Of a stretch of 64,000 bases of DNA, positions 2,841 through 32,861 are shown piece after piece; the stretch's first letter is position 1; each line of letters opens with the position of its first letter. This DNA comes from Acidimicrobiia bacterium (GTDB lineage Bacteria; Actinomycetota; Acidimicrobiia; Spongiisociales; UBA11373). The notes beneath the pieces were generated by a model that saw only the letters and a program-made list of their open reading frames with translations, was not told the origin of the DNA and ran no database searches. The stretch spans positions 3,105-67,104 of the forward strand of contig JAZGDZ010000089.1 in NCBI GenBank assembly GCA_036478235.1, in the 5' to 3' direction. A program made the position numbers and the translations under genes.

Positions 2841-3383
2841 TCAACCGTCCGAGGTGCTCGTCGTGCCGGAGCCATCAGAGGTGGTCGGCACCTCCGAGGT
2901 GCTCGACGTGTCGGAGCCGTCGGCGGTCGTCGTAGCCGTCGTCTCCGAAACCACCGAGGTACTGGATGTCGTCGGGGCTTCGAAGGTGTCGGTGGCCGGC
3001 TCACCCGTGAGTAGCAGCTCGAGCAGTCGCTCGCTGAGCGGCCCCTCGGGGTTCAGATCCGCTTCGGCAAACGCCCTCTCCTGGATCCCGGCAGGGTCAC
3101 ACCGCAGCGCCCGAACCCTGATGTCCAGATCACGCCCGGCCCGCTCCAGGTCGACGAGTCCCTCGGGCCACGCCTGGCGATCTGTGAACTCCCGCAGCAG
3201 GGTTTCGTCCAGTTCGGCGATCAAGTTCTCCAGGTACCGAACCGTGTCGGCGATGACGCGGTCGCACGTGTCATTCTCAATCGTCGTCGTCGTCGACGAC
3301 GTCGACGAAGTCGGCCCTGAGGCCGACGACTCGCACGCGGCCACGACGACAAGGAATACCGCCATTGCGGCACGGAGTCTCAC
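2841..3383 (-). CDS. Hypothetical acidic Ser/Thr-rich lipoprotein
   Basis: Signal peptide with lipobox (FLVVVAAC). Low-complexity S/T-rich termini. Same strand as the BMC operon and immediately downstream of it. Confidence 0.5.
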   Translation of the reverse strand: MRLRAAMAVFLVVVAACESSASGPTSSTSSTTTTIENDTCDRVIADTVRYLENLIAELDETLLREFTDRQAWPEGLVDLERAGRDLDIRVRALRCDPAGIQERAFAEADLNPEGPLSERLLELLLTGEPATDTFEAPTTSSTSVVSETTATTTADGSDTSSTSEVPTTSDGSGTTSTSDG

Positions 3384-3429: not shown

Positions 3430-3822
3430 TCACTCGTCGAAGAACCCGCCCTCGCCGGAACGCACACCCTCGAGGATGAACTGGCCGAAGACCGAATCGG
3501 CCGACAGGTCCCCGGCGCGGTTCGCCATCAGGGCCGCCATTTGCTCGTCCGAGCATCCCAGCTCGTCGGCGCGGGCGGTCAGCTCGTCACCCCGTGCCTC
3601 TACGTCGGCGAACACCTCAGGCGTCTCGTCGGATTCACCCAGAGCCGCCAGGGCCTCTATGTCGAGGTCGTCGATGATGTCGATCGTGTCCTGGAGCAGG
3701 GCGATGCCGGCGACCGCAAGCCCTTCACAGGAGTCGACCGACCCGGGATCGGCCGCATCGTCGTCTCCGCAGGTGGCGGTGACCAGTGCCATGGCGAGCA
3801 GGGCAACGGCGAGGCGTCTCAT
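3430..3822 (-). CDS. Hypothetical acidic lipoprotein
   Basis: Begins MRRLAVALLAMALVTATCG with a lipobox. Acidic helical composition. It starts 45 nt downstream of the last BMC-P gene. Confidence 0.5.
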   Translation of the reverse strand: MRRLAVALLAMALVTATCGDDDAADPGSVDSCEGLAVAGIALLQDTIDIIDDLDIEALAALGESDETPEVFADVEARGDELTARADELGCSDEQMAALMANRAGDLSADSVFGQFILEGVRSGEGGFFDE

Positions 3823-3867: not shown

Positions 3868-4158
3868 TCAAGCGATGGCGATCGAGTCACCGCCCACCCA
3901 GAGTTCGTCGATGATGCCCACGACCACGGCGCGGATGGGAGCGTGCGGATCGCCCACGATCTGACGGGCGCCGTTGCCCTCGTCGAGGATCAGCACCATC
4001 TCGCCGTGTCCGGCGCCGACGGCATCGACGCAAATCAGGTACCCGCCGGTGTCTTCGCCGGCCGAATCGAGCAGATCGCACATCAGCAGACGACGACCGT
4101 CGTAGATCGGATGGCTGATCGTCGACACGACCGTCCCCGAGATCCGCCCCAGCTTCAC
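3868..4158 (-). CDS. BMC vertex protein (BMC-P, EutN/CcmL/PduN family), paralog 1
   Basis: Begins MKLGRISGTVVST..., characteristic of EutN_CcmL. 96 aa. Overlaps the next gene by 4 nt. Confidence 0.8.
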   Translation of the reverse strand: MKLGRISGTVVSTISHPIYDGRRLLMCDLLDSAGEDTGGYLICVDAVGAGHGEMVLILDEGNGARQIVGDPHAPIRAVVVGIIDELWVGGDSIAIA

Positions 4159-4424
4159 GATCTGGAAACCTGATCGACGATCCCGACGATGGCGTGGTCC
4201 ACCGGGACGAACGGTTCCGGCATGGCCAGCGCTGCCTCACGGCTCCCCACGACGTAGACCAACTCCCCCGGCCCCGCCATCGCCACCGCGTCGGCTGCGA
4301 TCACCATGTCTCCTTCGGGGTTGCAATCGCGGTCGAGGGGCTGCACGACCAGAAAGCGAATCCCCTCCAGACCCTCGTACTTGACCGTTGCGACGAGCGT
4401 CCCGGTCACCTCAGCGAGCTGCAT
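4155..4424 (-). CDS. BMC vertex protein (BMC-P), paralog 2
   Basis: Begins MQLAEVTGTLVATVKYEGLEGIRFLVVQPLD..., an EutN/CcmL fold signature. Start placed at the internal Met; the arginine-rich upstream extension is rejected. Confidence 0.75.
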   Translation of the reverse strand: MQLAEVTGTLVATVKYEGLEGIRFLVVQPLDRDCNPEGDMVIAADAVAMAGPGELVYVVGSREAALAMPEPFVPVDHAIVGIVDQVSRS

Positions 4425-5013
4425 CGTCGTCCTCGCGGCCCATCCGAACAGAGAATCGGGAGTGATGGGTGAGGTTGTCGCCCATCTCGTCGTGGAGTTG
4501 CGGGATGACCGCGGAACCGACCAACTCGGAGTCGTCCACCCGACCCGAACCGATCTCCACAGCAGCCTCGACATCGGAAACGGCTCCGCCGAAGAGGAGA
4601 TAGGCCTTCCCGCCGAGGCCGTCGGCCAGGTTGATTTCGAGCAGGTCCACCGCGGCGCCCTTGAGTCCGGCGTCGGCCGCAGCCAGCACAGGTGCCACGG
4701 ACGCGGTCTCGATCACGCCCAGAGATTCGACCGGACCGGGAACTCGCATACCGCGTAGCGCCTCGACGACCCCGGGGTGGACGTCCAGAAGAACGATTTG
4801 GGCCACGAGTGACAACCCACCGATCTCGAGGCCTGCAGCGACCGACTCCTCGACGCTGGCCACATCGCCGGCCACCAGGACCAGGTACCTGCCCGGCTGG
4901 ACCGATCCGGCCACGAGGTCTCCGATCGGGGCACGCTTGACCATGGCGTCCCCGGCGACGATCCCAGTCGCCACCGAGTCAAACTCGAGCAGCCCGATGG
5001 CCGGGTTGGTCAC
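4411..5013 (-). CDS. Tandem-domain BMC shell protein (BMC-T, PduT-like)
   Basis: Starts with the canonical BMC motif AIGLLEFDSVATGIVAGDAMVKRA. A second BMC domain follows (SLGVIETASVAPVLAAADAGLKGAAVDLLEI). 200 aa. Confidence 0.7.
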   Translation of the reverse strand: MTNPAIGLLEFDSVATGIVAGDAMVKRAPIGDLVAGSVQPGRYLVLVAGDVASVEESVAAGLEIGGLSLVAQIVLLDVHPGVVEALRGMRVPGPVESLGVIETASVAPVLAAADAGLKGAAVDLLEINLADGLGGKAYLLFGGAVSDVEAAVEIGSGRVDDSELVGSAVIPQLHDEMGDNLTHHSRFSVRMGREDDDAAR

Positions 5014-6461
5014 ACGATCCTCAGGGCGCCCACGACCGCGATTCGGCGCTCCCGCGTGAAGGTGATCGGCCTCGTCATGCCGTCACCGCTCGGACTGGCG
5101 ATCGAGAACGAGGTGAACCCCTCCCCTCCCTGGCCGAGTCCGGCGTAGTTGGGGCCGTTGGCTATGAAGATGCTCACGTTGATGGATCGGGCCATCCGGG
5201 TGATGTTGGAGACGTCGTTCGAATGGATCGAGGCGGTGTGGCTGAAGCCGTGCTCCGACCGGATTGCCAGGTCGATTGCAGCATCGATGTCGGCCACGGC
5301 CGTGACCGGGAACACGGGCATCATCTGCTCCGTCCACACCAGGTTGTGATCGTTCGGGACCTGCGCCACCAGTAGTCGGGGGTCTCCGTCGACATCGACA
5401 CCGGCGGCCGCGGCGATGGCTCCGGCGTTCTTGCCGATCCACGAGCGGTTGATCACCCCGGGCCTCCCGGGGGGTCCCATCGAGTCGAAGATCACCCTCT
5501 CGACCTTCTTCAACTCGTGCTCTTTGAGTATGTGGGTGCCGTTGCGGCCCATTGCCCGCACCAGGTCGTCGAAGATCGACTTCACGGCGATCCCGGTCTT
5601 CTCGTCGGTGCAGACGACGTTGTTGTCGAACGATGCGCCGGCGACGATGTCTCGGGCCGCGCGCTCCACGTCGGCCGTCTCGTCCACAACGGCCGGAGGA
5701 TTGCCGGGACCCGCGGTCACCGAGCGCTTGTCGGTCTTGAGCGCCTCGCGCACGACTCCGGGGCCTCCGGTGACCAGCAGCACCCGGATCCCGGGATGCT
5801 GCATCAACTCCTGGGCGCTCTCGATGGTCGGCTCGGGGATCCCGGTCACCAGGTTCGGCGGCCCGCCGGCGGCCAGCACCGCCCGGTTGAGGAGGCGGAT
5901 GTTCTCCGCCGATACCCGCTTTGCGTTCGGATGGACGTTGAACACGACCGCGTTTCCCCCGCTGAGGATCGCGATGGTGTTGTTGATGATGGTCGATGTC
6001 GGGTTGGTGGTCGGGGTGATCGAGCCGATCAGCCCGAACGGGGCGTGCTCGGTGAGCATCATGCCGGCGTCGCCCGTCTCGATCAGCGGCTCGAGGTCCT
6101 CGGGTCCCGGGGTGCGGGTGGCGACGAGGATGTTCTTGCGCACCTTGTCTTCGGCGCGGCCGAGGCCGGTCTCCTCGTGGGCCATCGCGGCGAGGCGCTC
6201 CGCCTGATCGATCATCGCGGTCCGGATCGAGGCGACGACTGCAGAGCGGATCTCCAAGCCCATGGCCGTGTACGCCTTGTAGGCGCTCTCGGCCGCCTTC
6301 ACTGCTTCGCCGATTGTGGCGAACAGGCCCTCCCCGAGCTCCGCTTCGGGGATCTCCGCCGGAATGCGGGGATGCTCGGGAACGGCGTCCGGCGTGCCGC
6401 CGAGCCGGGTACGAACCCGGGCGATGATCTCGCGGATCTCTTGCTCGTCGAAGGCGCTCAC
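5010..6461 (-). CDS. CoA-acylating aldehyde dehydrogenase (EutE/PduP-like) with an N-terminal encapsulation-peptide-like extension
   Basis: Aldehyde dehydrogenase superfamily. N-terminal amphipathic segment [15 protein letters not shown] is followed by a Pro-rich linker. It sits inside the shell-protein operon. Confidence 0.8.
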
Positions 6462-6745
6462 TTCACGTACTTCACTTCACCGCCGACCTCCCAGGTGTCC
6501 ACGATCGCCATCACAACCGCGTCACAAGGCCGGTCCTTGGTCAGGACCGTCTGGCGGGCCGACGAACCGGTGGCGTACAGCACCACCTCACCGACCCCGG
6601 CACCGACGGCGTCGGCTGCGACGACGTATCCACCGGTCTCGGCCTGCTCGACGTCGAGCTGCTTGATCACCAGGAACTTGAGGCCCTCGAGGGTGTCTTC
6701 CTTCCTCGACGACACAAGCGTCCCGGCGACCCGTCCCAGAAGCAC
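6458..6745 (-). CDS. BMC vertex protein (BMC-P), paralog 3
   Basis: Begins [31 protein letters not shown]..., EutN/CcmL family. 95 aa. Confidence 0.8.
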
Positions 6746-6759
6746 GGGCTACCCCGTTC

Positions 6760-7062
6760 CTAGCTGGACTCCGCCTCGGCCTCTTCGTGACGGCCGAGCG
6801 GCATGACCAGATCGATGTTGGTGTGGGGACGGGCGATGAGGTGAGTGGCGACGACCTCACCGACCTTCTCGGCGCCGCGGATGCCGGCGTCGATCGCAGC
6901 CTTTACCGCGGCAACGTCGCCGCGAATGACCGCCGTCACATAGCCGCCGCCGGTCTTCTCGTACGACACGAGCTCGACCTTTGCGGCCTTCACCATCGCA
7001 TCTCCTGCCTCGACCACCGCGGCGAATCCGCGGCATTCGATCATCCCGAGTGCTTCAGCCAT
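6760..7062 (-). CDS. BMC hexamer shell protein (BMC-H, PduA/EutM-like)
   Basis: Matches the canonical single-domain BMC sequence MAEALGMIECRGFAAVVEAGDAMVKAAKVELVSYEKTGGGYVTAVIRGDVAAVKAAIDAG...ARPH. Confidence 0.85.
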   Translation of the reverse strand: MAEALGMIECRGFAAVVEAGDAMVKAAKVELVSYEKTGGGYVTAVIRGDVAAVKAAIDAGIRGAEKVGEVVATHLIARPHTNIDLVMPLGRHEEAEAESS

Positions 7063-7107
7063 GGGCTCTCGTTCTCCTTTTCGTTGTCAATCCTCCGGGC
7101 GGAGCCG

Positions 7108-7743
7108 CTAATTCGCCTCCGTGCCTTCGATGCCTTCGAGGCCTTCGAGCGCATCCACCGCGGCCCGCCAGCCGACGTCGATGTCCCGCTCCTCTCCCCC
7201 GAGATAGACCCTTCCCAGCGATCCGAACGAGCGGACCTCCAGGATGTTGATGTCGGCCGCCTTCTCGGCCTCGTTGGCGGCGAGGGCAGCGTAGGACGCC
7301 GGCTCCATCTCGAGCACATAGAGCGTCTGACCGGGAATGAGCATCTGGCCGTGGCGCATCCGGTTGATGAGCTGCGCCTGGTGGTCGTCGATCCGCCGGA
7401 TTATCTGCGATGAGGCGATGCGGGGCTTGACGCGATCGGTCTCCTCGTGGCCGATCTCCGACAGGATGGCCGCTCCGGCGGCGCGCACGTCGGCCTGTTC
7501 CGGTGAGTGGATCTCGAGCAGCCCGAAGTAGCGCTCGACGATTTGCATGCCCGGCTTGACATGGGTCGCCTTGAGAGCGATATCGGTGAGACGGTTGATC
7601 TCGATCCCTGGAGAGATCTCGACGTAGAGGCTGGCGTCGCCGGCGAGCGGGAGGAAACCCTGGGCGATCGTGCCCAGGAACGCCGCGTACTGCGGCTGGA
7701 GGCTGTCGAGGAACGAGTATCCCCGCAGGTCAATACCGGCCAC
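7108..7743 (-). CDS. Putative second tandem-domain BMC shell protein (BMC-T)
   Basis: 211 aa with two diverged BMC-like halves ([39 protein letters not shown] and [51 protein letters not shown]). Whether the domains are permuted (EutL/PduB-like) cannot be told from sequence alone. Confidence 0.55.
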
Positions 7744-8587
7744 TGGCTGTCCCTCCTGTCACGATCTCGATTCCGGCGGATGCTCCGATTCTGGTCGCAC
7801 CGGCCGCGATCATCTGTTTGGCGTCTTCGGCACTGCGAATCCCCCCGGAGGCCTTCACCCCCATGTCCGGCCCCACCGCCTCCCGCATCAGTGCCACGTC
7901 GTACACCGTCGCCCCGCCCGGGCCGAAACCGGTCGACGTCTTCACGAAGTGGGCACGGGCCCGGCGGGCGATCCGGGAGACAATCACCTTTTCGTCATCC
8001 TCGAGCAAAGCCGCCTCGATTATGACCTTGCACAACGCTCCCGCCTCGCGGCACGAATCCGTCACCCCGACGATGTCGCGCTCGACGAGCTCGTAGTCCC
8101 CCGACTTGAGAGCGCCGACATTGACGACCATGTCGATCTCGCGGGCGCCGTCGCGGATGGCGCGCCGCGCCTCCAAGGCCTTTACCTCCGGGGTGGTCGC
8201 TCCGAGCGGGAACCCGACAACGCAGCACGTCAGGACCTGGGACCCGCGCAGCCTCTCGGCCACCCTTTTCGCCCACGTCGGGTTGACACACACGCTGGCA
8301 AACCCGTACTCGATCGCCTCGTCGCACATCCGGTCGACCTCCGCCGCGGTGGCGTCGGGTCTGAGCAGCGTATGATCGATGAATCCGGCGAGGTCGCCGG
8401 GGACATCCGCCCCGTTTCCGCTGTACGAGACCCGGGCAGCGCCGGCGGCGATCACCGACCGCACCTTCTCCGAAGAGTGGGCGGCGCAGTCACCCACACA
8501 GGCGAGGTAGTCATCCCAGGCCTCGCCGGCGATGGCGGCAAGCACCTCCTGGGTGATGGCATCGACAAGTTGGTCGCGTTCGGTCAC
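7730..8587 (-). CDS. deoC: Deoxyribose-phosphate aldolase (class I, DeoC family) with a ~70-aa N-terminal extension
   Basis: DeoC core motifs [33 protein letters not shown] and FVKTSTGF. The N-terminal helix [17 protein letters not shown] resembles an encapsulation peptide. Confidence 0.8.
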
Positions 8588-9174
8588 GCCGTACTCCTCG
8601 CGTACTTGCTCTCGATGTCGTCGATCTTCTCGACCCTAAGCGCGTGGCGCCCCTCCCCCCAGGGAGTCGCCAGCCACGCCTCGACGATCTGCAGCGCCAG
8701 ATTCTCGCCGATCAGCCCGGCGCCCAGGGTCAGGACGTTGGCATGGTTGTGCTCGCGGCTGTTGCGCGCTGAGGAAACGTCGTAGCAGAGTGCGGCCCGC
8801 ACGCCGGGAACCTTGTTGGCCGCCATAGCCGACCCGATGCCGGCACCGTCGATCACTATCCCCCAGCGGCAACCTCCTCCCGCCACCTGCTCAGCCACCG
8901 CTTGGGCGAAATCGGGGTAATCGACCGACTCCGCCGAGTCCGTGCCGCAATCGACCACCTCGTGGCCTTGCTCGCGCAACCGGAAGGCGATCCGCTCCTT
9001 GAGCCGGAAACCCCCGTGGTCGGCGCCGATGGCGATCGCCTCGGTCTGACCCCCGGGCACCTCTTCGGGCGGTGGCGGAGGGGCCGACGCCGCTGGCGTG
9101 CGCCCCAGGTCGTCGACGATCTTCCCCACCAGAGCTCGGATCTCGTCTTCTCCGGGGACTTCAAGGCGCGGCAC
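8584..9174 (-). CDS. rpiB: RpiB/LacAB-family sugar-phosphate isomerase with an N-terminal encapsulation-peptide-like extension
   Basis: RpiB core motifs IAIGADHGGFRLKE, VVDCG and GAGIGSAMAANKVPGVRAA. It is preceded by EDEIRALVGKIVDDL plus an APPPPPEEVPGG linker. Confidence 0.8.
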   Translation of the reverse strand: MPRLEVPGEDEIRALVGKIVDDLGRTPAASAPPPPPEEVPGGQTEAIAIGADHGGFRLKERIAFRLREQGHEVVDCGTDSAESVDYPDFAQAVAEQVAGGGCRWGIVIDGAGIGSAMAANKVPGVRAALCYDVSSARNSREHNHANVLTLGAGLIGENLALQIVEAWLATPWGEGRHALRVEKIDDIESKYARSTA

Positions 9175-9242
9175 GCAGCGATTATCCCACGAAGAACCGC
9201 CGCGAGCCGGAGGCCTAGTCTCAAAACGAACGAAGGATCATC

Positions 9243-9851
9243 GTGGCAGACGACTCAGCCTTCATCTGGGACCGGCCGACCCCACAGGTGACGCCGCGAC
9301 GCCGCCCGCCTATCCCGGAATCCGCAGCCCCCTCGCTCGAAGGCAGGATCACACTTCGAGAGGCGGAGCACCGCTTCGGGGTTCGGGTCTCGACCCTCCG
9401 AGCCTGGTCACGCCGCGGGTCGGTTGATGCGATCCGAACGCCCGGGCCTCACGGCGAGCAATGGATGGTCACGACCGAGTCGGTGGCGCACCATCTCAGC
9501 CGTCGAGCACCCCGAGCCACACCGACCGACGCTCCCCGATCGACCGGGCCCACCGAGGACGGCACCGCGATGCTCGTTCCCCGCGACGCCTGGGACCGCC
9601 TCATGGACCAGCTGGGAAACCTGCACGAGGCCGGCATGAATCTGGCCGAGGCCCGGGAGCGGGCCGCCAAGGCCGAGACCGAGGCGACGTTCCTACGGGA
9701 ACGATTGACCGAGATGCGCTCGGAGCGCGACGAGCTGAAGGAGCAGGCGCGACCAACCCAGCCGGACGCCCGAAGTGCGCCGTCTCCCACCTCGGGGGGA
9801 TGGGATTCCTTCCGAAAGCGCTACGGCTGGCTGTGGAGACGGAGGCACTAG
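9243..9851 (+). CDS. MerR-like HTH transcriptional regulator with a C-terminal coiled coil, divergent from the BMC operon
   Basis: Helix-turn-helix segment ITLREAEHRFGVRVSTLRAWSRRG and a C-terminal heptad-like segment (LAEARERAAKAETEATFLRERLTEMRSERDELKE). GTG start. 68-nt divergent intergenic region. Confidence 0.5.
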   Translation: MADDSAFIWDRPTPQVTPRRRPPIPESAAPSLEGRITLREAEHRFGVRVSTLRAWSRRGSVDAIRTPGPHGEQWMVTTESVAHHLSRRAPRATPTDAPRSTGPTEDGTAMLVPRDAWDRLMDQLGNLHEAGMNLAEARERAAKAETEATFLRERLTEMRSERDELKEQARPTQPDARSAPSPTSGGWDSFRKRYGWLWRRRH

Positions 9852-25053: not shown

Positions 25054-26064
25054 CTACCGCCTGGCGACCTCTCTGAGGATGATCCACACGACCCCGGTCG
25101 CTGCGGCGAGGAGCAAGAGCACGGCGAGAGCGACCGCGACGAGGAGTGCCGTCCCCCAGAACCCACCGTCGACGCCGGGGCGGGGTACGGGCAGCGACGC
25201 AGCGGCCTCGTCGGTGATGTCCAACTCGATGAACTGGGCGATCGACTTCTGACCGTTGCGGTCACCCTCCGCCCCATCCCACACGGCGAATGCGACCAGC
25301 GTCGTCTGGTCGACTGCAAAGGAGGGGCCGTCTGCCGTCGTCTCGAAGTCACGAGCGAAGAGCGCCCGCCACTTGCCGTCGCGCCAGTGGCCGACCCCGG
25401 CCACGTCCTGGGCGGAGGCCGGCGTCAACGTTCCGAAGCCCTCGGCGACGAGGCTCTCGACCGGGCTGGGGTGGTCCGAGGAAGCGAGTGGATTCCCCAC
25501 GTTCTGCGCCGGGTTGAAGATGGCCTCATCGGCTCCTGGATAGGTGTCGACCGCAGTGTTGGGATAAGGGCTGGAGGCAAAGCCATCGTCGATGTCCTTC
25601 TGCCACACCGCCTTCCACTGCCAGATGCTGACGGGCAGGTCGGTGGACCCCATCGTGTACGGGGGATTGGACCCCTCCACCGATGGAAACTGGACGGCAG
25701 CGGCGTCGGCGAAGAGCGTGGAGCCGTTCACGGCGTCGTCCACCTCGTCGTCGGCCCATTCCAGGAGCAGGAAGAGCCGGAAATCAGCATGGAGCGCCCG
25801 CACCGTCAGGGAACCCACGGCGCCGCCCCCGAATGGCGGCACCAGCTCCTGGGCGCTGAGCGAGACCTGCCTGGAGTTGGCCCCGTCCCACACCGCGGAC
25901 CAGGGATCGTCCTCGAGGACCGGCGCCGATGCGGGTGTCGCCTCGAGCCGCGGTGCCTGCGACTTGACCGGGATCAGGCCGAATACCCCGCCGACGAGTG
26001 CCAGCGCGACCACCGCGACCACTGTGATGCTCGACCGGCGCGGGCTCCTAAAGGATTTCAGCAT
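25054..26064 (-). CDS. Heme-b gamma subunit of a type II DMSO-reductase-family enzyme (EbdC/DdhC-like domain) with a C-terminal transmembrane anchor
   Basis: N-terminal signal/anchor, then a conserved EB_dh-like core (HADFRLFLLLEWADDEVDD...AVQFP...IWQWKAVW...GHWRDGKWRALFAR). C-terminal hydrophobic helix FWGTALLVAVALAVLLLLAAATGVVWIIL followed by REVARR. Confidence 0.65.
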   Translation of the reverse strand: MLKSFRSPRRSSITVVAVVALALVGGVFGLIPVKSQAPRLEATPASAPVLEDDPWSAVWDGANSRQVSLSAQELVPPFGGGAVGSLTVRALHADFRLFLLLEWADDEVDDAVNGSTLFADAAAVQFPSVEGSNPPYTMGSTDLPVSIWQWKAVWQKDIDDGFASSPYPNTAVDTYPGADEAIFNPAQNVGNPLASSDHPSPVESLVAEGFGTLTPASAQDVAGVGHWRDGKWRALFARDFETTADGPSFAVDQTTLVAFAVWDGAEGDRNGQKSIAQFIELDITDEAAASLPVPRPGVDGGFWGTALLVAVALAVLLLLAAATGVVWIILREVARR

Positions 26065-26806
26065 GCCGTGGCTCCGGGTCCGGCGCTAAGAAGGGAGGAC
26101 ACTCGTCGAGGGGACAGCCGTCCGCTTCCGTCGGCTCCGGCGGCGCCGGCTCGTCCCGATAGCGGTCGACCCTGCCGATACGGAGAAAGCGTTCCTCCCA
26201 CCCGATGAACTCTGCGAGGAGACGACCCGCCGCGGTGTGCCAGTCGCGACCACCCGCCAAGACGACCCTCCCCGCGATCAACGGGGCCCAGCGGGCCAGA
26301 TGCTCCCGCAGAAACGTGCGGTGGGCCGCCCGGGTCGTGTCGAGCCCGGAGCGGTCACCCTCCTCGCGGGCGCGGGCTTCCTTGAGTGCAAGGAGATAGG
26401 CGAATTCCAGCTCGACGGCGAGATGATCCGGCCTGTCGCCATCGGGCCGGACGCCAAACGCCCGGTAGAAGCCGGAGACATCGGCCTGGTGCTGGGTCTG
26501 CTGGAACACGTGGCTGGCACTGAATGCCGTCTCGTAGGGCGGGCAGTCCTCGGAGTAGCTCAGGGTGAACACCGTCTGGTGGGACCGCTCGAGGTCGCGT
26601 GCCCCGGTCCCGGCGAGGGCGCGCTCCAGCGCCTTCACCCCGGCAGCGATCTCGTCTGAGACGAGGGTGGCCCCGACGCGAGCCACCTCCAGGGCGCCTT
26701 CGAGTTGAGCGTGGACATCCTTCGTCGGATAGGAGAATGCGAGCGAGAGCAGCCGGTACATCGAGGCCCGGGCCAGCGCCCTCTCCTCGGCTGTGGCGCG
26801 TTTCAT
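26048..26806 (-). CDS. TorD/NarJ/EbdD-family molybdoenzyme maturation chaperone (delta subunit)
   Basis: Family signature RPDHLAVELEFAYLLAL. ATG at 26806 with GGAGG 9 nt downstream of the beta subunit stop. The long Arg/Gly-rich upstream extension is rejected. Confidence 0.65.
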   Translation of the reverse strand: MKRATAEERALARASMYRLLSLAFSYPTKDVHAQLEGALEVARVGATLVSDEIAAGVKALERALAGTGARDLERSHQTVFTLSYSEDCPPYETAFSASHVFQQTQHQADVSGFYRAFGVRPDGDRPDHLAVELEFAYLLALKEARAREEGDRSGLDTTRAAHRTFLREHLARWAPLIAGRVVLAGGRDWHTAAGRLLAEFIGWEERFLRIGRVDRYRDEPAPPEPTEADGCPLDECPPFLAPDPEPRHAEIL

Positions 26807-26814
26807 GATCCTCC

Positions 26815-28053
26815 CTAGATCGAGTTCAAATACTGGTCCGGCCGCTCGAAGTGGGCCTCGACCACCGAGGTCCGCACGATCTCCTCGCCGTCTCTCCCGT
26901 AACCAACCACGGTGTCGTTGAAGACCTCCAACGGCCGACCGTTGACGTTGACCTCCGACACCTTCTCGCCCTCGATCACCTCGAACTTGAAGATGATCTT
27001 CTGCGACACCCGGAAGAGCTGGAGGACCGCCTGGGTACGCCTTGTCGGGCGCTCGTAGACGTCGATGGCCCTTCCCACACCGGGCCCGAACATCTGTCGC
27101 AGATAGGGCCGGGGCACCCATCGCGGGGGGATGTAATAGATGTTGGGTTGGGTGCCGAACTGGGGATAGAGCGGCAGAGCCACCTGTGCCTCGCGGATCA
27201 GGTGATAGAGCGGGTTGTCCGGGTCCTCTATCCAGCTCCCCGTCTCGGTCACCGGCACCAGACCCTGCAGACGAATCTGACCGGGGCACACCGCCATGCA
27301 CCGCGCCTCCATCGGCAGTCCATCTGTCAGCGGGTCGGACCCCTCGATACGGGGAAAGCACCCGATGCACTTTTCCGAGGTGCGTGTGTTGGGCCGGTAC
27401 AGCGATTTCTTATAGGGACACTGTTCGACGCACTTGCGATAACCCCGGCAGCGGCGTTGGTCGATGAGGACGATCCCGTCCTCCTCCCGCTTGTAGATGG
27501 CGTCGCGAGGGCAGGCGGCGAGGCAGGCCGGATATGCACAGTGGTTGCAAAGCCGCTGCAGATAGAAGAACCACGTGTGGTGCTCCGGCAGCACAGCCCC
27601 CTCGGACAGGGGCCGGGTGGCACGCGGCGAGTCCTCAAACAGGTTCGGGGCCGACCACTCCTCATCCTCCGGGATGTACCCGACCGCCTGCTGGCGGCCC
27701 TGCTCGGCGGCCTCGAAGATCGTCGCGCCTTCATAGACACCGTATGGGGCATCGGGGCTGGAGCCGCCCTCCTCCCAGGTCTGACCTCCTGGGTTGGCTC
27801 GCTCGATGAGATCCAGCGTCTTCAGATCCCAGTGATGGGGATAGCCGCCGTACGGCTTGGTCTCCACGTTGTTCCACCACATGTCCTCCTGCCCCTCGGA
27901 GAACGTCCAGGTCGACTTACACGCCATCGTGCAGGTCTGGCAGGCGATGCAGCGGTTGATGTTGAACACGGCGGCGAACTGCCACTGGCCCGCCCCCGGG
28001 TCCAGCCGGTACGTCATCTCCCGCCCCAGCTGCCAGTTGTACACGCTGGCCAT
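26815..28053 (-). CDS. Four-cluster iron-sulfur beta subunit (NarH/EbdB/DdhB-like) of a type II DMSO-reductase-family enzyme
   Basis: Motifs [42 protein letters not shown] and [15 protein letters not shown] are the characteristic Cys groups. Confidence 0.85.
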
Positions 28054-28382
28054 CAGTCAGCCTCCCTGTTCGCACCGTCGGGGATCGACTGTCCGAAGAC
28101 CTCGTCGATCAGCGCCTTCACCCCGTCCTCGCCGAGCGCCTGCATGACCGCCGCCGCTCCGGCGTACCGCCGAACGGTGAACATCCGGGCCACCCGCTCC
28201 CGCGACCAACCCAACATCGCGAACTCCTCTACGAACGTGCGCCCCATGGCCTTCACCCCGTCGTGACCGGGCGTCGCCAGCGAAACTGCGGTGGCGATGA
28301 AGGGGTCGGTGGGCTCCGCCTGCTTCGTCCTCCCCGAGCGCGACACCAACTCGATCGGCACGAATCCGTGATCCGGGCTCAT
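28053..28382 (-). CDS. Small hypothetical protein (109 aa, no Cys) encoded between the alpha and beta subunit genes
   Basis: My translation: MSPDHGFVPIELVSRSGRTKQAEPTDPFIATAVSLATPGHDGVKAMGRTFVEEFAMLGWSRERVARMFTVRRYAGAAAVMQALGEDGVKALIDEVFGQSIPDGANREAD. Its ATG overlaps the alpha subunit stop (ATGA) and its TGA overlaps the beta subunit ATG (TGATG). Confidence 0.45.
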   Translation of the reverse strand: MSPDHGFVPIELVSRSGRTKQAEPTDPFIATAVSLATPGHDGVKAMGRTFVEEFAMLGWSRERVARMFTVRRYAGAAAVMQALGEDGVKALIDEVFGQSIPDGANREAD

Positions 28383-31300
28383 GAGATGAACCCCCCATCC
28401 AGGTAACGCAGCATTCGCTCGTCCTCTCCGGCGGGGGACATCCCCGACTCCCCCGGCTTCCACCGCCCCTGACCGCCCAGGCCTCCGTCCTCCGCCTTGA
28501 CGACCCTGACCAGGGTCTCCTTGGGAACGGTATTGATGGCGTGGTTGTCGGCCTCGCCGCCGAACATGAAGGCAAACTCGATCTTCGACTTGTGGAACAG
28601 GGTGTCGGTCTGATGCATCGGCATCGCCCAGTCGCGGGTCACGCTCTGGTGGGAGCCGTAGCGATAGCTCGACTGATACCCGGTGTCCTCCGAAACGGCT
28701 CGCCCGTCGGGTCGCGTCTCGTGGGCGAGCACCGTCTTCTGGGTGGCGAGCCAATAGCCGTGCTTGGCCATCAGCACGTCGTAGGGGTATGCCGGGTTGA
28801 ACCTGACCCGCAGCATGAGCCGGGCGACCTTGTGGAACGGATCGCTGGTGTCGTTGGGGTCGTAGTTCGGATATGGGCGGTCGGCCGGGTTGGCGTCGAT
28901 GTACACATAGTCGCCGTCGTTGAGCCCCAGGTCGCGGGCGGCGTCGGGGTTCATGTGCACCTCGCGGTCGCCGACGTGGGGAAGGCGAACGTCCCGGCGA
29001 TGCGGGTCCCCAAAGTTGTTGCCCCAGATCACATGCCAGTCGGTCACCGCCCAACCGCTGTGCGTCGTGTGGCGGGTCTTGGGTGTGAGGAAGTAGAAGC
29101 GGTAACCCGCCTCCCATAGAGGATTCTTGGACTCCTTGACCCCCGACCACGGCATCTTGATGTTGCGCACCGTGCGCAGGTCGGGGTCCATCTCCGTCTC
29201 CGGGATCCCATAGTCCTCGGGTCGGATCAACGGGTTGGAGGACACGATCACGTTGGGCAAGTACGGCGTGGCCTCGGGACCTTCGCGATGGACGATGAAG
29301 TTCTCGCCGTACTCGATCGCCTCGGGGATGTCCACGTAGGAGTGCATCCGCCCGGTGTCCGTCCAGAAGGGCAGGTCGTCGTGGATCTGCTCCCAGAAGG
29401 GGATGCGGGGGTAGGTGCGGAACATCATGAGGGCGGCGCCGGGTTCGCCGTACTTCCCGGCCTTGATGTCGTCCACCGTGTAGCCGCGGGTGGTGGCCGA
29501 GGCGTCGAGTAGCCGCTGCAGATAGACCTCGGCGCGGTCCTCCAGGGCGAACTTCCAGTAGTCGGTGAACCGCTCGTCTTCGAGCTGCGTGCCGAGACGC
29601 TCGGCGACACGAGCCATGATCATCAGGTCGTCTTCGCTGTCGAACAGCGGGGCGATGCCGTCCCTCCCCCAGATCTGCAGGAACGGGTTGGAGCAAGACG
29701 CCGTCACCTCGGAGGTCTGGAACTCGACCCACGAATTGGCGGGCAGGATGAAGTCGGAAAGCTCGCACGACGAGGTCATCTCGATGTCCTGTGTGACAAT
29801 CATGTCGACGTGGGGGTTGACGTCTCTGATCACCATGTATGCGTGCTTGGCGTTGTTGATCAGGTTGACGTTGGTGGTCCAGATGACCTTGGTCGGCGTT
29901 GGCATGTGGCTCTCGCCGGTAAAGTTCTTTCGCCCGAACTTCGGCGTCTCCACGATCAGCGCCTTGTCCCCGTGGTCCCAGTAGGCGGGCTCCTCGTCCT
30001 TGGCGTAGTTGTGGACGGAGATTTCCTTGCCGTCGGCGGTGTCGTCGAGGTTGGGGTTGAACGGGTCCTCGGCCACCCAACCCTTGAACCCGGGTCCAGA
30101 CCACTCCGTTGCCTGCCACAGGGCGGCCTTGTAGTTGCCGGCCCACGTGTGGCTCCCGGCGCCAAGCCGGCCGATGTTGCCGGTGAGCATCAGGGGGAGA
30201 TAGGTGGCCCGGTTGTGCAGGGTGGCATGGAACCAGTGATTGATTCCCTCTCCGGTGTGGATCCCCACCGGCTTGATCGTCGCGATGTCGTTCGCCAGCC
30301 TCTCGATGAGATCGATCGGCGTGCCCGTGATCTCGTGCACCGTGTCCAGGTCGTAGTCCTGGAGATGATCCCGGTGTGCCTCCCAGATGGTCAGCACCTG
30401 CACCTCGGTTCCGTCGGTCAGCACGACCGGGCCGCGGAATCCGAGGTCGGGCTCGAAGCCCGCCGCCGCCATCCGACCCCCGACGTCGTCGCGGGTGATG
30501 GCCCGGAGCTCGCCTCGACCCTTGTCGAAAATCACCCGGTCGCCGCCGATGGCCTCGTACTGCTCGGTCGTGAGCTTCTGCTTGCTGAAGCTGGGCCCGG
30601 CGGCGTCCAGTCCCGGCTCATAATCGGGGAACACATCCGATGCCCGGAGGCGCTCCAAGTTGTCCTCACGCAGCAACAGGGGGAAGTCTGTGTACTTGAG
30701 AACGAAGTCCTCGTCGTAGAGGTCCCGATCCATCAGGATCTTCGTGATCGCCAGGAAGATTGCGGTGTCGGAGAGCCCGGGGCGCACCGGAAGCCAATAG
30801 TCCGATTTGGTGGCGGGCGGGCTGTACTCGGGGGTGATCGTGACGATCTTGCCGCCGCGCTCCATGATGTTCGAGAAGAAGTGCGACTCGGGCATCTTGT
30901 TCTCGACGAGGTTCTTCCCCACCTGGATAGTGAGCTTGGAGTGAGCCAGGTCGTTGAAGTCGGGCTCGGATGTCTGCAACCCGTGGACGAAGGGGTGGCC
31001 GGGGGCCTGGTCGCCGTGCCAGGTGTAGTTGGACCAGTTGCGCCCCGCCTTGGCCTGGTCGGGCCCCACGCCGCGGACGTGGGTGTCGAGCAGAGCGAGA
31101 GTGTTGCTCATCCGGTACATGCCGTACTTGCCGATGACGCCGAGCAGGCCCATCCCGCCTCTCAGCTTCATCGTTCTGGTGCCGGCCCCGCCCATGGCCT
31201 CGATCATCTCGGGTTGGTATCCCTCGGCAGCGAGGCGGGCGGCTCCTTGCTCCCCGGAGTAGGTCGCGGCGACGTTCGTGAGACCGCGGGCCACGTATTC

Positions 31301-31828
31301 GTACGCCTCGTCCCAGGACAGCCGGGTGAAGGAGTCGGTGCCCCGGGAGTCGAACATGTACTTGGTCCGGTTGGCCGGCGTCAGCTCCGGAAAGCCATCG
31401 TCGGCCCACTGCTTCCAACCGACCCGCACCATGGGGAAGCGGAGTCGATACGGGCCGTAGACCCTGCGATGGAAAGTCTGCCCCTTGGGGCAGCCGCGCG
31501 GGTTCCACTTGACGGAGGCGGTGTTGCCGAGCTGGTCGGCGTAGGAGCCGGCGTCGTAGTTGGGCTCGATTCGCTGGATGACCCCGTTGCGCTCGAAGAC
31601 CCGTAGCCGGCAGGCGTGGGTGTCATTGGGCGAGCAAACGAAGGTGAAGCTGCGGTCGTAGGCGTACTGGTCGCGATAGACCTGCTCCCAGTTCCGGTAC
31701 GGATACGCGGTGAGCGGATTGTCCACTCCCTCGGCCAGCTGAAGGTTCCTGAGCAAGGGGAAGCTGGCGGCGCCAGCGGCGGCCACCGCACCCAGCTTGA
31801 GGAAATCCCTTCGAGTCAGGTTCGGCAT
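28379..31828 (-). CDS. Molybdopterin catalytic alpha subunit of a type II (Nar-like) DMSO-reductase-family oxidoreductase, Tat-exported, substrate unknown
   Basis: True N-terminus MPNLTRRDFLKLGAVAAAGAAS has a twin-arginine motif. N-terminal FeS (FS0) region VCSPNDTHAC...C. 1149 aa, in the NarG/EbdA/NxrA size class. The 333-aa in-frame upstream extension overlapping the next gene is rejected. Confidence 0.8.
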   Translation of the reverse strand: MPNLTRRDFLKLGAVAAAGAASFPLLRNLQLAEGVDNPLTAYPYRNWEQVYRDQYAYDRSFTFVCSPNDTHACRLRVFERNGVIQRIEPNYDAGSYADQLGNTASVKWNPRGCPKGQTFHRRVYGPYRLRFPMVRVGWKQWADDGFPELTPANRTKYMFDSRGTDSFTRLSWDEAYEYVARGLTNVAATYSGEQGAARLAAEGYQPEMIEAMGGAGTRTMKLRGGMGLLGVIGKYGMYRMSNTLALLDTHVRGVGPDQAKAGRNWSNYTWHGDQAPGHPFVHGLQTSEPDFNDLAHSKLTIQVGKNLVENKMPESHFFSNIMERGGKIVTITPEYSPPATKSDYWLPVRPGLSDTAIFLAITKILMDRDLYDEDFVLKYTDFPLLLREDNLERLRASDVFPDYEPGLDAAGPSFSKQKLTTEQYEAIGGDRVIFDKGRGELRAITRDDVGGRMAAAGFEPDLGFRGPVVLTDGTEVQVLTIWEAHRDHLQDYDLDTVHEITGTPIDLIERLANDIATIKPVGIHTGEGINHWFHATLHNRATYLPLMLTGNIGRLGAGSHTWAGNYKAALWQATEWSGPGFKGWVAEDPFNPNLDDTADGKEISVHNYAKDEEPAYWDHGDKALIVETPKFGRKNFTGESHMPTPTKVIWTTNVNLINNAKHAYMVIRDVNPHVDMIVTQDIEMTSSCELSDFILPANSWVEFQTSEVTASCSNPFLQIWGRDGIAPLFDSEDDLMIMARVAERLGTQLEDERFTDYWKFALEDRAEVYLQRLLDASATTRGYTVDDIKAGKYGEPGAALMMFRTYPRIPFWEQIHDDLPFWTDTGRMHSYVDIPEAIEYGENFIVHREGPEATPYLPNVIVSSNPLIRPEDYGIPETEMDPDLRTVRNIKMPWSGVKESKNPLWEAGYRFYFLTPKTRHTTHSGWAVTDWHVIWGNNFGDPHRRDVRLPHVGDREVHMNPDAARDLGLNDGDYVYIDANPADRPYPNYDPNDTSDPFHKVARLMLRVRFNPAYPYDVLMAKHGYWLATQKTVLAHETRPDGRAVSEDTGYQSSYRYGSHQSVTRDWAMPMHQTDTLFHKSKIEFAFMFGGEADNHAINTVPKETLVRVVKAEDGGLGGQGRWKPGESGMSPAGEDERMLRYLDGGFIS

Positions 31829-32808
31829 CACACTCCCCTCTCGTCGTCGGAGCCGTCCCCGATCGATCCTTGGGTAATGAGAAAGAGCCCGAGCAGGGCG
31901 CTCAGGTTGTGATGGACCGCCGTTGGGGCGGTCCCGGCCACCCAGAGGAGAGCGATCCCGGCGGCGATCAGGCGGACTCTCCCGTCGCTGACGGCTCCGG
32001 CGGCCAGCATCCCCGATGCTGCTGCCGCCGCCACGTAGAAGATCAACGGCAGCCCCAGCGTCGCTCCGAGCGCCCAGGTCGAGAGGAGAGCCGAGAAGCC
32101 GGGCCGGGACAGCATGAGACCGGCAGCCATGGCGGCGGCAACGAATCCCGCGATCCGCACCGCCCGGGTTGTTCCGCCCCCGGCGAAGGAGATCGCCGCC
32201 AGCACCGGAGCAGCGAGCAGAGCGGCCTCGGCGCCGGAGCGCACCAGGGCCGAGTCGCCCACCGCCGGGGCCAGAAATGCGATCTGCCCCAATGCGACTC
32301 CGAAGCCGGCGCTCACCGCTGCCGCCCGCATGAATCCCCGCGGCCCGGGAGCTGCAACCAGCACCGCCGCCCCCAGGATCACAAAGCCATGGAGAGCCCC
32401 CCGTGTCCCGGTCCCGACGGCGACGGAGGCGATCACGGTGAACGCGGCGGCGACCGGGAGGATGGTCCCGGCGAATCGCCGGGGCACCCGGGATGCGACG
32501 CCGACGGTGAATGCCGAGATGACAACGAGCGCAGCCACCGCTCCGGCGATGCCCGACCCGCCGAGCTCCAGACCCCTGGCCAGTGCTGGTCGGGACGGAG
32601 CCAAATAGGCCACCAGGGCGGCGCCGACCCGGTCGACCAGGATCTCGGCCAAGGCCAGGAGTGCTGCGGCGCCTGCCAGCATATGGGCCGTGGCGGGGAG
32701 TCGGTGGGAGGCTGCTCTCGCCGTCGGTGCGGACGGAACTACTGCTGGAATGGGTCGAACCCTCTTCGAGAGCGCCGGTGCTGTCATCGTCGACAAGGTT
32801 ATAGTCAT
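31828..32808 (-). CDS. Ala-rich polytopic integral membrane protein, first gene of the Mo-enzyme operon
   Basis: Eight or more hydrophobic segments. Its stop overlaps the alpha subunit start (TGATG). The start could be a later Met (MLAGAAALL). Confidence 0.45.
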   Translation of the reverse strand: MTITLSTMTAPALSKRVRPIPAVVPSAPTARAASHRLPATAHMLAGAAALLALAEILVDRVGAALVAYLAPSRPALARGLELGGSGIAGAVAALVVISAFTVGVASRVPRRFAGTILPVAAAFTVIASVAVGTGTRGALHGFVILGAAVLVAAPGPRGFMRAAAVSAGFGVALGQIAFLAPAVGDSALVRSGAEAALLAAPVLAAISFAGGGTTRAVRIAGFVAAAMAAGLMLSRPGFSALLSTWALGATLGLPLIFYVAAAAASGMLAAGAVSDGRVRLIAAGIALLWVAGTAPTAVHHNLSALLGLFLITQGSIGDGSDDERGV

Positions 32809-32861
32809 CCTGATAGATGAACGTCAAGCTAAGAAGTGGACGTTGTGGATAGGCCCCAGCC

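Follow-up and report, generated by a model that had tools for sequence, protein, structure and literature searches.

Encapsulation-peptide-like N-terminal extensions on the three cargo proteins of a predicted SPU-type microcompartment locus from an Acidimicrobiia genome

Bacterial microcompartments (BMCs) of the sugar phosphate utilising (SPU) class have been described in a series of studies (Axen 2014; Sutter 2021; Dwyer, Sutter and Kerfeld 2024, PMC11585597). According to the published SPU model, deoxyribose-5-phosphate aldolase (DERA, also DeoC) would release acetaldehyde from deoxyribose-5-phosphate, and a CoA-acylating aldehyde dehydrogenase (AldDH) would then turn the acetaldehyde into acetyl-CoA inside the shell (PMC11585597). 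All SPU DERAs were reported to be extended at the N-terminus by about 70 aa, with a helix followed by a low-confidence segment; the RpiB-family proteins of the class (RPIs) have a typical N-terminal encapsulation peptide (EP), and the EP of AldDH is N-terminal in every SPU subtype but SPU6 (PMC11585597). Here, the corresponding three genes were analysed in a stretch of 64,000 nucleotides (hereafter the window) from the metagenome-assembled genome (MAG) of an Acidimicrobiia bacterium (GenBank assembly GCA_036478235.1, contig JAZGDZ010000089.1, positions 3,105 to 67,104). It is quite probable that their products form the cargo set of an Acidimicrobiia SPU microcompartment, with N-terminal extensions that are translated and that would serve in targeting to the shell.

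By its gene content the locus is of the SPU type. As in the published examples, DERA, an RpiB-type RPI and an acylating AldDH are encoded together with BMC-H and BMC-T shell proteins and a triplet of BMC-P proteins. The likeness extends to the termini of the cargo proteins: DERA of the window has a 65-aa extension (approximately 65-70 aa in the SPU class), RPI has a candidate N-terminal EP and an Asp in place of the catalytic Cys, and the candidate EP of AldDH is N-terminal. The host lineage, Acidimicrobiia, is not named in the text of the SPU paper (PMC11585597). The locus type known as ACI was also considered and was rejected, as this label refers to Acidobacteria and involves different enzymes. 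The loci closest to that of the window were found in other Acidimicrobiia MAGs, at 76-85% identity.

Translation starts and association with shell genes

All three N-termini quoted in a first-pass annotation of the window were recovered by exact matching on the minus strand, at the positions it had given. RPI, DERA and AldDH begin approximately 45, 65 and 44 residues, respectively, ahead of the point where free-standing homologues start, so that the DERA extension, previously put at about 70 residues, comprises the 65 residues before the core. In RPI, the N-terminus MPRLEVPGEDEIRALVGKIVDDLGRTPAASAPPPPPEEVPGG precedes the IAIGADHGG core and lies outside the family models (Pfam LacAB_rpiB starts at residue 47 and NCBIfam rpiB at 46-47); RpiB proteins in the PDB align from RPI residue 46-47, at their own residue 3. 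Likewise, the DERA extension lies ahead of the canonical DeoC start, at residues 65-75, of NCBIfam deoC, which starts at residue 66, and of Pfam DeoC, which starts at residue 70 (profile position 6). Alignments with DERA structures in the PDB begin at query residue ~65, which corresponds to residues 2-12 of those proteins. The core of AldDH starts at about residue 45. The EutE-type model PRK15398 aligns from residue 5 of this protein, and the AldDH peptide therefore sits where that of EutE-type BMC dehydrogenases does.

With a genome of approximately 67% G+C, in which long spurious open frames are common, the extensions might be regarded as annotation artefacts, the real starts being those of the catalytic cores. 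Indeed, in several relatives the frames remain open far upstream of the conserved start. What these upstream parts encode, however, is unrelated Arg/Pro-rich noise, whereas conservation of the peptides begins exactly at the proposed starts (from residue 2-5 onward) and ATG or GTG is kept at the same positions in the relatives. The GTG of DERA overlaps the stop codon of the RPI gene (GTGA) and is preceded by GAGGAG, a Shine-Dalgarno-like site; the GTG of AldDH overlaps the stop codon of a BMC-P gene, and no other start codon stands between it and an in-frame TGA upstream. In addition, conservation in the DERA extension is close to that in the core, and an invariant promoter-like box stands just ahead of the RPI GTG. 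An artefact is thus extremely improbable: the start codons of the three extensions are supported, and these open reading frames (ORFs) are not over-called. One Acidimicrobiia MAG at NCBI contains an annotated 196-aa protein identical to RPI. For SPU cargo genes, automated annotation has been reported to truncate the starts in many cases (PMC11585597).

The box upstream of RPI was found by aligning eight loci, in all of which CGTGGGATAATCG is invariant, whereas the remainder of the intergenic region (9175-9242) has diverged. Within it, TGGGATAAT resembles an extended -10 element and may drive a leaderless operon mRNA, which would fix the start of RPI at 9174. A generic sigma-70 scan of the region upstream of RPI returned no full promoter; the box emerged by alignment only.

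The relationship between the extensions and shell genes was investigated in a survey of DERA genes, in which one genome per species was scanned, giving 80 loci, and shell genes were sought in the available flank, up to 10 kb. Every one of the 32 shell-linked DERA genes could accommodate an extension of 21 aa or more, and an EP-like helix is present in 31 of them, including three RPI-DERA fusions in which the helix lies between the two domains. On the other hand, of the 30 genes in which no more than 10 residues could precede the core, not one is shell-linked (Fisher p=1.5e-9); these belong mostly to Clostridium, bacilli and other Firmicutes/Mollicutes, together with two archaeal MAGs. Considered along with the family models and the free-standing RpiB and DeoC structures in the PDB, all of which start at the core, these counts support the earlier proposal that the three extensions are specific to BMC-associated homologues.

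The survey also bears on the possibility that the extensions serve a function outside microcompartments, for example in oligomerisation or regulation of free cytosolic enzymes. At least 12 extension-bearing DERA genes, some of them with an adjacent RPI, have no shell gene within the flank that was available (at most 10 kb): L012, L013, L018-L020, L022 and L070 from Acidobacteriota, L055, L062 and L071 from Clostridia, and those of two other MAGs. Such loci may be satellites of compartments encoded elsewhere, since satellite DERA genes with EP-like extensions have been described in genomes whose shell genes lie at other sites (PMC8217296). Given this precedent and the strong association with shell genes, a role in free enzymes is very unlikely.

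Candidate encapsulation peptides of RPI and AldDH

An EP has been defined as an amphipathic helix of 15-20 aa with a poorly conserved linker, occurring only on encapsulated homologues (PMC4594438; Kinney 2012; Aussignargues 2015). In the first-pass annotation, each of the three extensions was described as a short amphipathic helix followed by a flexible linker, and this description agrees with RPI and AldDH but not with DERA. For RPI, the AlphaFold2 (AF2) model contains a confident helix and then a segment devoid of secondary structure with a low predicted local distance difference test (pLDDT) score. Conservation, expressed as majority-residue frequency in 58 homologues, is 0.70 in the helix, 0.27 in the linker and 0.85 in the core, and the EP motif stands 36 to 46 residues from the core, depending on the homologue. 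As modelled, the RPI extension fits the EP definition, with a conserved helix and a variable linker.

The AldDH extension fits the same definition by its sequence. Neither Pro nor Gly occurs in residues 4-20, after which comes GG-T-P. The conservation of the linker is 0.72 in close relatives, and the spacing between the EP and the core ranges from 26 to 59 residues and is unalignable across phyla. A comparison of the N-terminal 45 residues with PDB sequences yielded only insignificant matches, to designed helical repeats. The extensions of RPI and AldDH would thus both be canonical EPs.

Some RPIs encoded beside an extension-bearing DERA, namely those of L012 (~9300-9500), L013, L020 and L057, carry another N-terminal module, some 60 aa long (..ITEADAR..GG.VTPLA.D.L..). 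It occurs in Acidobacteriota and one Planctomycete and replaces the EP helix, except in L057, where it stands after the EP helix. Its sole match is sub-threshold, to PDU_like (PF15953, E=0.053).

The amphipathic character of the three helices was examined by the clustering of large hydrophobic residues on one helix face, compared with permutations. This test was used instead of the Eisenberg moment because Ala and Arg dominate the Eisenberg scale. Clustering was found in RPI (p=0.004) and AldDH (p=0.006) but fell short in DERA (p=0.057). By contrast, the Eisenberg moments were not significant against within-helix permutations for any of the three proteins (p=0.13 for RPI, 0.69 for DERA and 0.40-0.51 for AldDH). 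When an 18-residue window was moved along each protein, the RPI helix ranked first within its protein (p=0.04), and those of DERA and AldDH did not rise above shuffles. The clustering test itself discriminates poorly, and model EPs scored no better in it. The amphipathicity of the three helices is therefore suggestive rather than decisive.

The candidate EPs of RPI and AldDH are also similar in sequence (Smith-Waterman score 42, p=0.0004-0.0005). A pattern E-x-EIR-x-[IL][IV]-x-[KR]-[IV]...LG-x-TP is shared between 9097-9156 and 6393-6449, and the two peptides are alike in all 11 syntenic loci (each p<=0.02). Moreover, pairs from the same locus are more alike than pairs from different loci, with a pairing permutation p of 0.004 that ignores the kinship of the loci. 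The likeness suggests that the two helices probably have a common docking site, and their co-variation hints at co-evolution for one such site. We infer that the three cargo proteins are targeted to the shell, by analogy with the Pdu/Eut and archaeal SPU-like systems, in which case the EP helix would bind the luminal face of the shell tiles and/or drive coalescence of the cargo.

The latter action could be the principal one, with a core of enzymes nucleated by contacts among the helices and only afterwards enclosed by the shell. The likeness and co-variation of the two peptides, from RPI and AldDH, would also be compatible with pairing between helices, and EPs reportedly favour the aggregation of core proteins (PMC11585597, PMC4594438). 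It was further found that full-length SPU6 DERA is insoluble and that deletion of its N-terminal extension solubilises the protein (PMC11585597). Nevertheless, direct binding of EPs between shell tiles has been reported for Pdu (as cited in PMC11585597), and recruitment to pre-formed shells depends on the EP in an archaeal SPU-like system (PMC12747264). Coalescence as the main role of the helices is a minority possibility in our judgement, and the two mechanisms are not mutually exclusive.

RPI may contribute to packaging in a way of its own. Asp109 (8848-8850) takes the place of the catalytic Cys and is invariant in the 58 homologues, and His142 is kept; in the alignment with PDB 3ph3, the best-matching RpiB structure, IVIDGAGIGS of RPI corresponds to givicgtglg. 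An Asp for the catalytic Cys was reported in all SPU RPIs, one of which showed little or no activity when assayed, and in one SPU system studied RPI and DERA form a 1:1 complex (PMC11585597). In view of this replacement, the complex formed in the studied system and the tag of RPI, which is the most canonical of the three, RPI may be an adaptor rather than an enzyme and would probably act mainly in packaging.

The DERA extension as a candidate N-terminal domain

DERA is a 285-aa protein with all three catalytic residues (D152, K187 and K216), and its extension differs from those of RPI and AldDH. Structure prediction, which had been proposed as a check of the three segments, returned helices at residues 9-23 of RPI and 3-20 of DERA, whereas residues 22-38 of DERA have a pLDDT below 50. 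This low-confidence part does not behave as a linker. Across 57 homologues, the extension (residues 1-65) contains zero indels and has a conservation of 0.76-0.88, compared with 0.85 in the TIM-barrel core; the values are 0.77-0.88 for residues 22-65 and 0.80-0.88 for residues 39-65, where a GAxR anchor is kept across phyla. C30, C34 and H37 are invariant, as are R43, G49 and R52; D33 is present in 56 of the 57 homologues, and position 27 is Cys in 27. On this comparison, the extension is better described as a conserved, fixed-length, SPU-specific N-terminal domain than as a helix plus linker.

Several of these features weigh against a shell-targeting role for all three extensions, in addition to the DERA loci without a flanking shell gene mentioned above. 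The DERA extension lacks the poorly conserved linker of the EP definition, and its helix is of moderate pLDDT (57-71), is weakly amphipathic and has an Eisenberg moment not above shuffles.

A search with the extension alone gave 54 clusters at 50% identity, most of which carry four Cys at the position of the Cys/His stretch. Four-Cys patterns such as CxxCxxxCxxxC and CxxCxxCxxC are thus widespread in distant relatives; of 37 representatives that could be evaluated, 23 have at least three Cys, and Cys is absent in some relatives. Most Acidimicrobiia DERAs show CxxCxxxCxxH, and the subclade of the window shows YxxCxxxCxxH. A metal site at the Cys/His motif is a reasonable guess. Six DERA extensions, four-Cys variants among them, were compared with Pfam and matched no family, and no PDB match was found for the motif; a sub-threshold hit to Molybdop_Fe4S4 (E=0.084) was rejected as evidence.

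These results raise the possibility that the extension of DERA is in the main an accessory domain, folded and possibly metal-binding, with the first helix as part of it and a role in structure, redox sensing or regulation, or nucleation of the core, while DERA itself would enter the shell by piggy-backing on RPI. The end-to-end conservation without indels, the invariant C30, C34 and H37 with the nearly invariant D33, and the four-Cys motifs of distant relatives are what such a domain would lead one to expect, and some relatives carry a flavoprotein-like insertion beside the motif. Moreover, RPI and DERA form their complex even when the extension of DERA is absent (PMC11585597). Yet the motif has no counterpart in Pfam or the PDB, only two Cys and the His are kept in the DERA of the window, and the N-terminal helix persists in DERAs with short, motif-less extensions and in the RPI-DERA fusions. 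Nor does the motif track the presence of Cys at one site in the pore of the BMC-Ts shell protein, which we take to be the position of the Fe-S ligand of PduT: this site is Gln or His in the clade of the window, and in the Firmicute loci with a Cys at this site the DERA extensions are short and lack the motif. An accessory domain in place of a targeting peptide is considered rather unlikely.

Aspects of both readings could be combined. The DERA extension would then be a metal-binding domain behind an EP helix, ancestrally with four Cys and with Cys2-3/His(/Asp) in Acidimicrobiia, and the RPI and AldDH peptides would co-evolve while competing for a single docking site on the shell. This combination is a speculative one and is considered unlikely. 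If it is true, a Zn or Fe-S element, structural or redox-responsive, would control cargo nucleation or DERA activity. The Cys/His stretch is not mentioned in the main text of the SPU paper (PMC11585597), and a full-text literature search returned no mention of it.

A domain of approximately 150-200 aa was observed between the EP helix and the DERA core in two other loci (L048, 2288-3097 and upstream; L052, upstream of 9081). In L048 it has a weak match to Flavoprotein (PF02441, E=0.0011), an arrangement similar to the Flav+DERA fusions known from Hodarchaeales microcompartments.

The operon and its comparison with known systems

The three cargo genes belong to a nine-gene operon on the minus strand (3868-9174), whose other six genes encode shell proteins according to Pfam, PDB and NCBIfam matches (Table 1). 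The families that mark an SPU locus are all represented, with DERA (pfam01791), AldDH (pfam00171), BMC-H/T (pfam00936) and BMC-P (pfam03319). In the direction of transcription, the order is RPI, DERA, BMC-Tdp, BMC-H, BMC-P, AldDH, BMC-Ts, BMC-P and BMC-P. AldDH has the catalytic Cys284, and its closest PDB entry is 5jfl (E=3e-117).

Table 1. Features of the predicted SPU-type locus and its flank, in window positions
Feature	Position	Strand	Remarks
Divergent MerR/BldC-like helix-turn-helix (HTH) protein	9243..9851	+	weak, sub-threshold HTH matches only
Conserved extended -10-like box TGGGATAAT	9181..9189	-	within CGTGGGATAATCG; 6-7 nt upstream of RPI GTG
RpiB-family protein (RPI), 196 aa	8584..9174	-	Pfam PF02502, residues 47-184
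RPI, candidate EP helix, residues 9-23 (EDEIRALVGKIVDDL)	9106..9150	-	AF2 helix, pLDDT ~87
RPI, predicted flexible linker, residues 24-45, Pro/Ala-rich	9040..9105	-	AF2 pLDDT 48-60, no secondary structure
Deoxyribose-5-phosphate aldolase (DERA/DeoC), 285 aa	7730..8587	-	NCBIfam deoC residues 66-276; PDB E=1e-77
DERA, N-terminal EP-like helix, residues 3-20	8528..8581	-	AF2 helix, pLDDT 57-71
DERA, Cys/His stretch, residues 27-38 (Y-LA-C30-VG-D33-C34-AA-H37-S)	8474..8509	-	pLDDT <50
DERA, conserved helix-strand segment and junction, residues 39-65 (...VPGD)	8393..8473	-	AF2 helix 39-47, strand 53-55
CcmP-like double-stacking shell trimer (BMC-Tdp)	7108..7743	-	E=1.5e-83 to CcmP, PDB 4ht5
BMC-H shell hexamer protein	6760..7062	-	Pfam PF00936, E=2.7e-28
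BMC-P pentamer protein, first of three	6458..6745	-	Pfam PF03319, E=3.6e-28
CoA-acylating aldehyde dehydrogenase (AldDH), 483 aa	5010..6461	-	NCBIfam PRK15398 residues 5-483
AldDH, candidate EP helix, residues 4-21	6399..6452	-	conservation 0.84 in 10 relatives; hydrophobic face p=0.006
AldDH, Pro-rich linker, residues 22-44	6330..6398	-	5 Pro in 23 residues
BMC-Ts tandem-domain shell protein	4411..5013	-	two Pfam BMC domains; NCBIfam PduT-type match below cutoff
BMC-P pentamer protein, second of three	4155..4424	-	EutN domain starts MQLAEV; listed ORF 4155-4574 over-called
BMC-P pentamer protein, third of three	3868..4158	-	Pfam PF03319, E=5.9e-24

Among the shell proteins, BMC-Tdp matches NCBIfam beta_CO2some_P with E=2e-99 and 331.5 bits, slightly below the 340-bit cutoff of that model. 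BMC-Ts contains zero Cys; its pore segment is SVQPGRYL, and the Gln at the pore site is replaced by His in close relatives. Three EutN_CcmL proteins were identified by Pfam, which makes up the triplet of BMC-P paralogues. In the listed 139-aa ORF of the second one, the EutN domain begins at residue 51, which makes the ATG at 4424, overlapping the end of the BMC-Ts gene, the probable start. The divergent MerR/BldC-like gene is a possible regulator of the operon, to judge from its position alone.

Two small minus-strand ORFs (2841-3383 and 3430-3822) with lipoprotein-like signals, neither of them with a Pfam match, follow directly downstream of the last BMC-P gene. The remaining part of the window is ordinary chromosome and includes genes for ATP synthase, SHMT, MurJ, Rho and RF1. 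A cluster of the ethylbenzene-dehydrogenase/DMSO-reductase type was also observed on the minus strand at 25054-32827. It encodes a haem subunit (EB_dh) and a 4Fe-4S dicluster subunit, and a molybdopterin oxidoreductase domain lies in its 1482-aa ORF; a twin-arginine translocation (TAT) signal at residue ~336 of this ORF indicates that its start is probably over-called.

A PduS homologue (of the RnfC or Complex1_51K type) was sought among 49 proteins of the 64-kb window, including every ORF of at least 250 aa supported by G+C content at third codon positions (GC3), and was not found; PTAC and alcohol dehydrogenase were not found in the window either. With no PduS in the window and no Cys in BMC-Ts, neither electron export nor NAD+ recycling has an obvious route. 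A PduS homologue has been reported in all SPU subtypes but SPU6 (PMC11585597). Like SPU2 and SPU3, the locus has a CcmP-like BMC-Tdp, no PTAC and an N-terminal candidate EP on AldDH, and it differs from them in having no PduS homologue in the window. The subtype was therefore left unassigned; the missing homologue, which may be encoded in another part of the genome, bears on the subtype and not on SPU membership. In addition, the RPI linker is approximately 22 aa long, compared with approximately 75 aa in the Chloroflexi SPU protein that has been studied, and the putative regulator is MerR/BldC-like instead of the GntR type of the SPU paper.

As for canonical Pdu/Eut EPs (PduP, PduD, EutC and EutE), the resemblance lies in a helix of 15-20 aa at the terminus, hydrophobic on one face, in its restriction to encapsulated homologues and, for RPI and AldDH, in a poorly conserved linker. 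The differences are that the carriers in the window, which would be targeted in the same manner, are a class I aldolase and an RpiB-like protein, and that the 'linker' of DERA is conserved and of fixed length. The first-pass annotation had considered three EP-tagged enzymes, an aldolase and an isomerase among them, to be unusual relative to Pdu and Eut. This view does not hold, because four Pdu proteins (PduD, PduE, PduP and PTAC) carry predicted EPs and class II aldolases of other BMC types carry them at the C-terminus (PMC4594438), and because the same trio has already been published for the SPU class.

The archaeal SPU-like microcompartments of Hodarchaeales provide a further comparison. 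Their DERA and AldDH cargo have predicted EPs, whose deletion abolished recruitment to the shell (preprint PMC12747264). In that system, DERA is fused to a flavoprotein domain and more enzymes are present, whereas the DERA of the window is without such a domain, which is found in two bacterial relatives.

The compact nine-gene locus, with its start codons placed correctly, offers a small candidate for reconstitution or engineering, with three short tags and six shell genes. As far as we are aware, no native SPU compartment has been isolated, the published examples included. The domain-like extension of DERA and the co-variation of the RPI and AldDH tags leave the general picture of cargo packaging in metabolosomes unchanged. 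As the three extensions were already published for the SPU class, the finding is largely an ordinary one, which adds a predicted Acidimicrobiia member to that class, and the Cys/His motif of the DERA extension and the likeness between the RPI and AldDH peptides are possibly new details beyond the published description.

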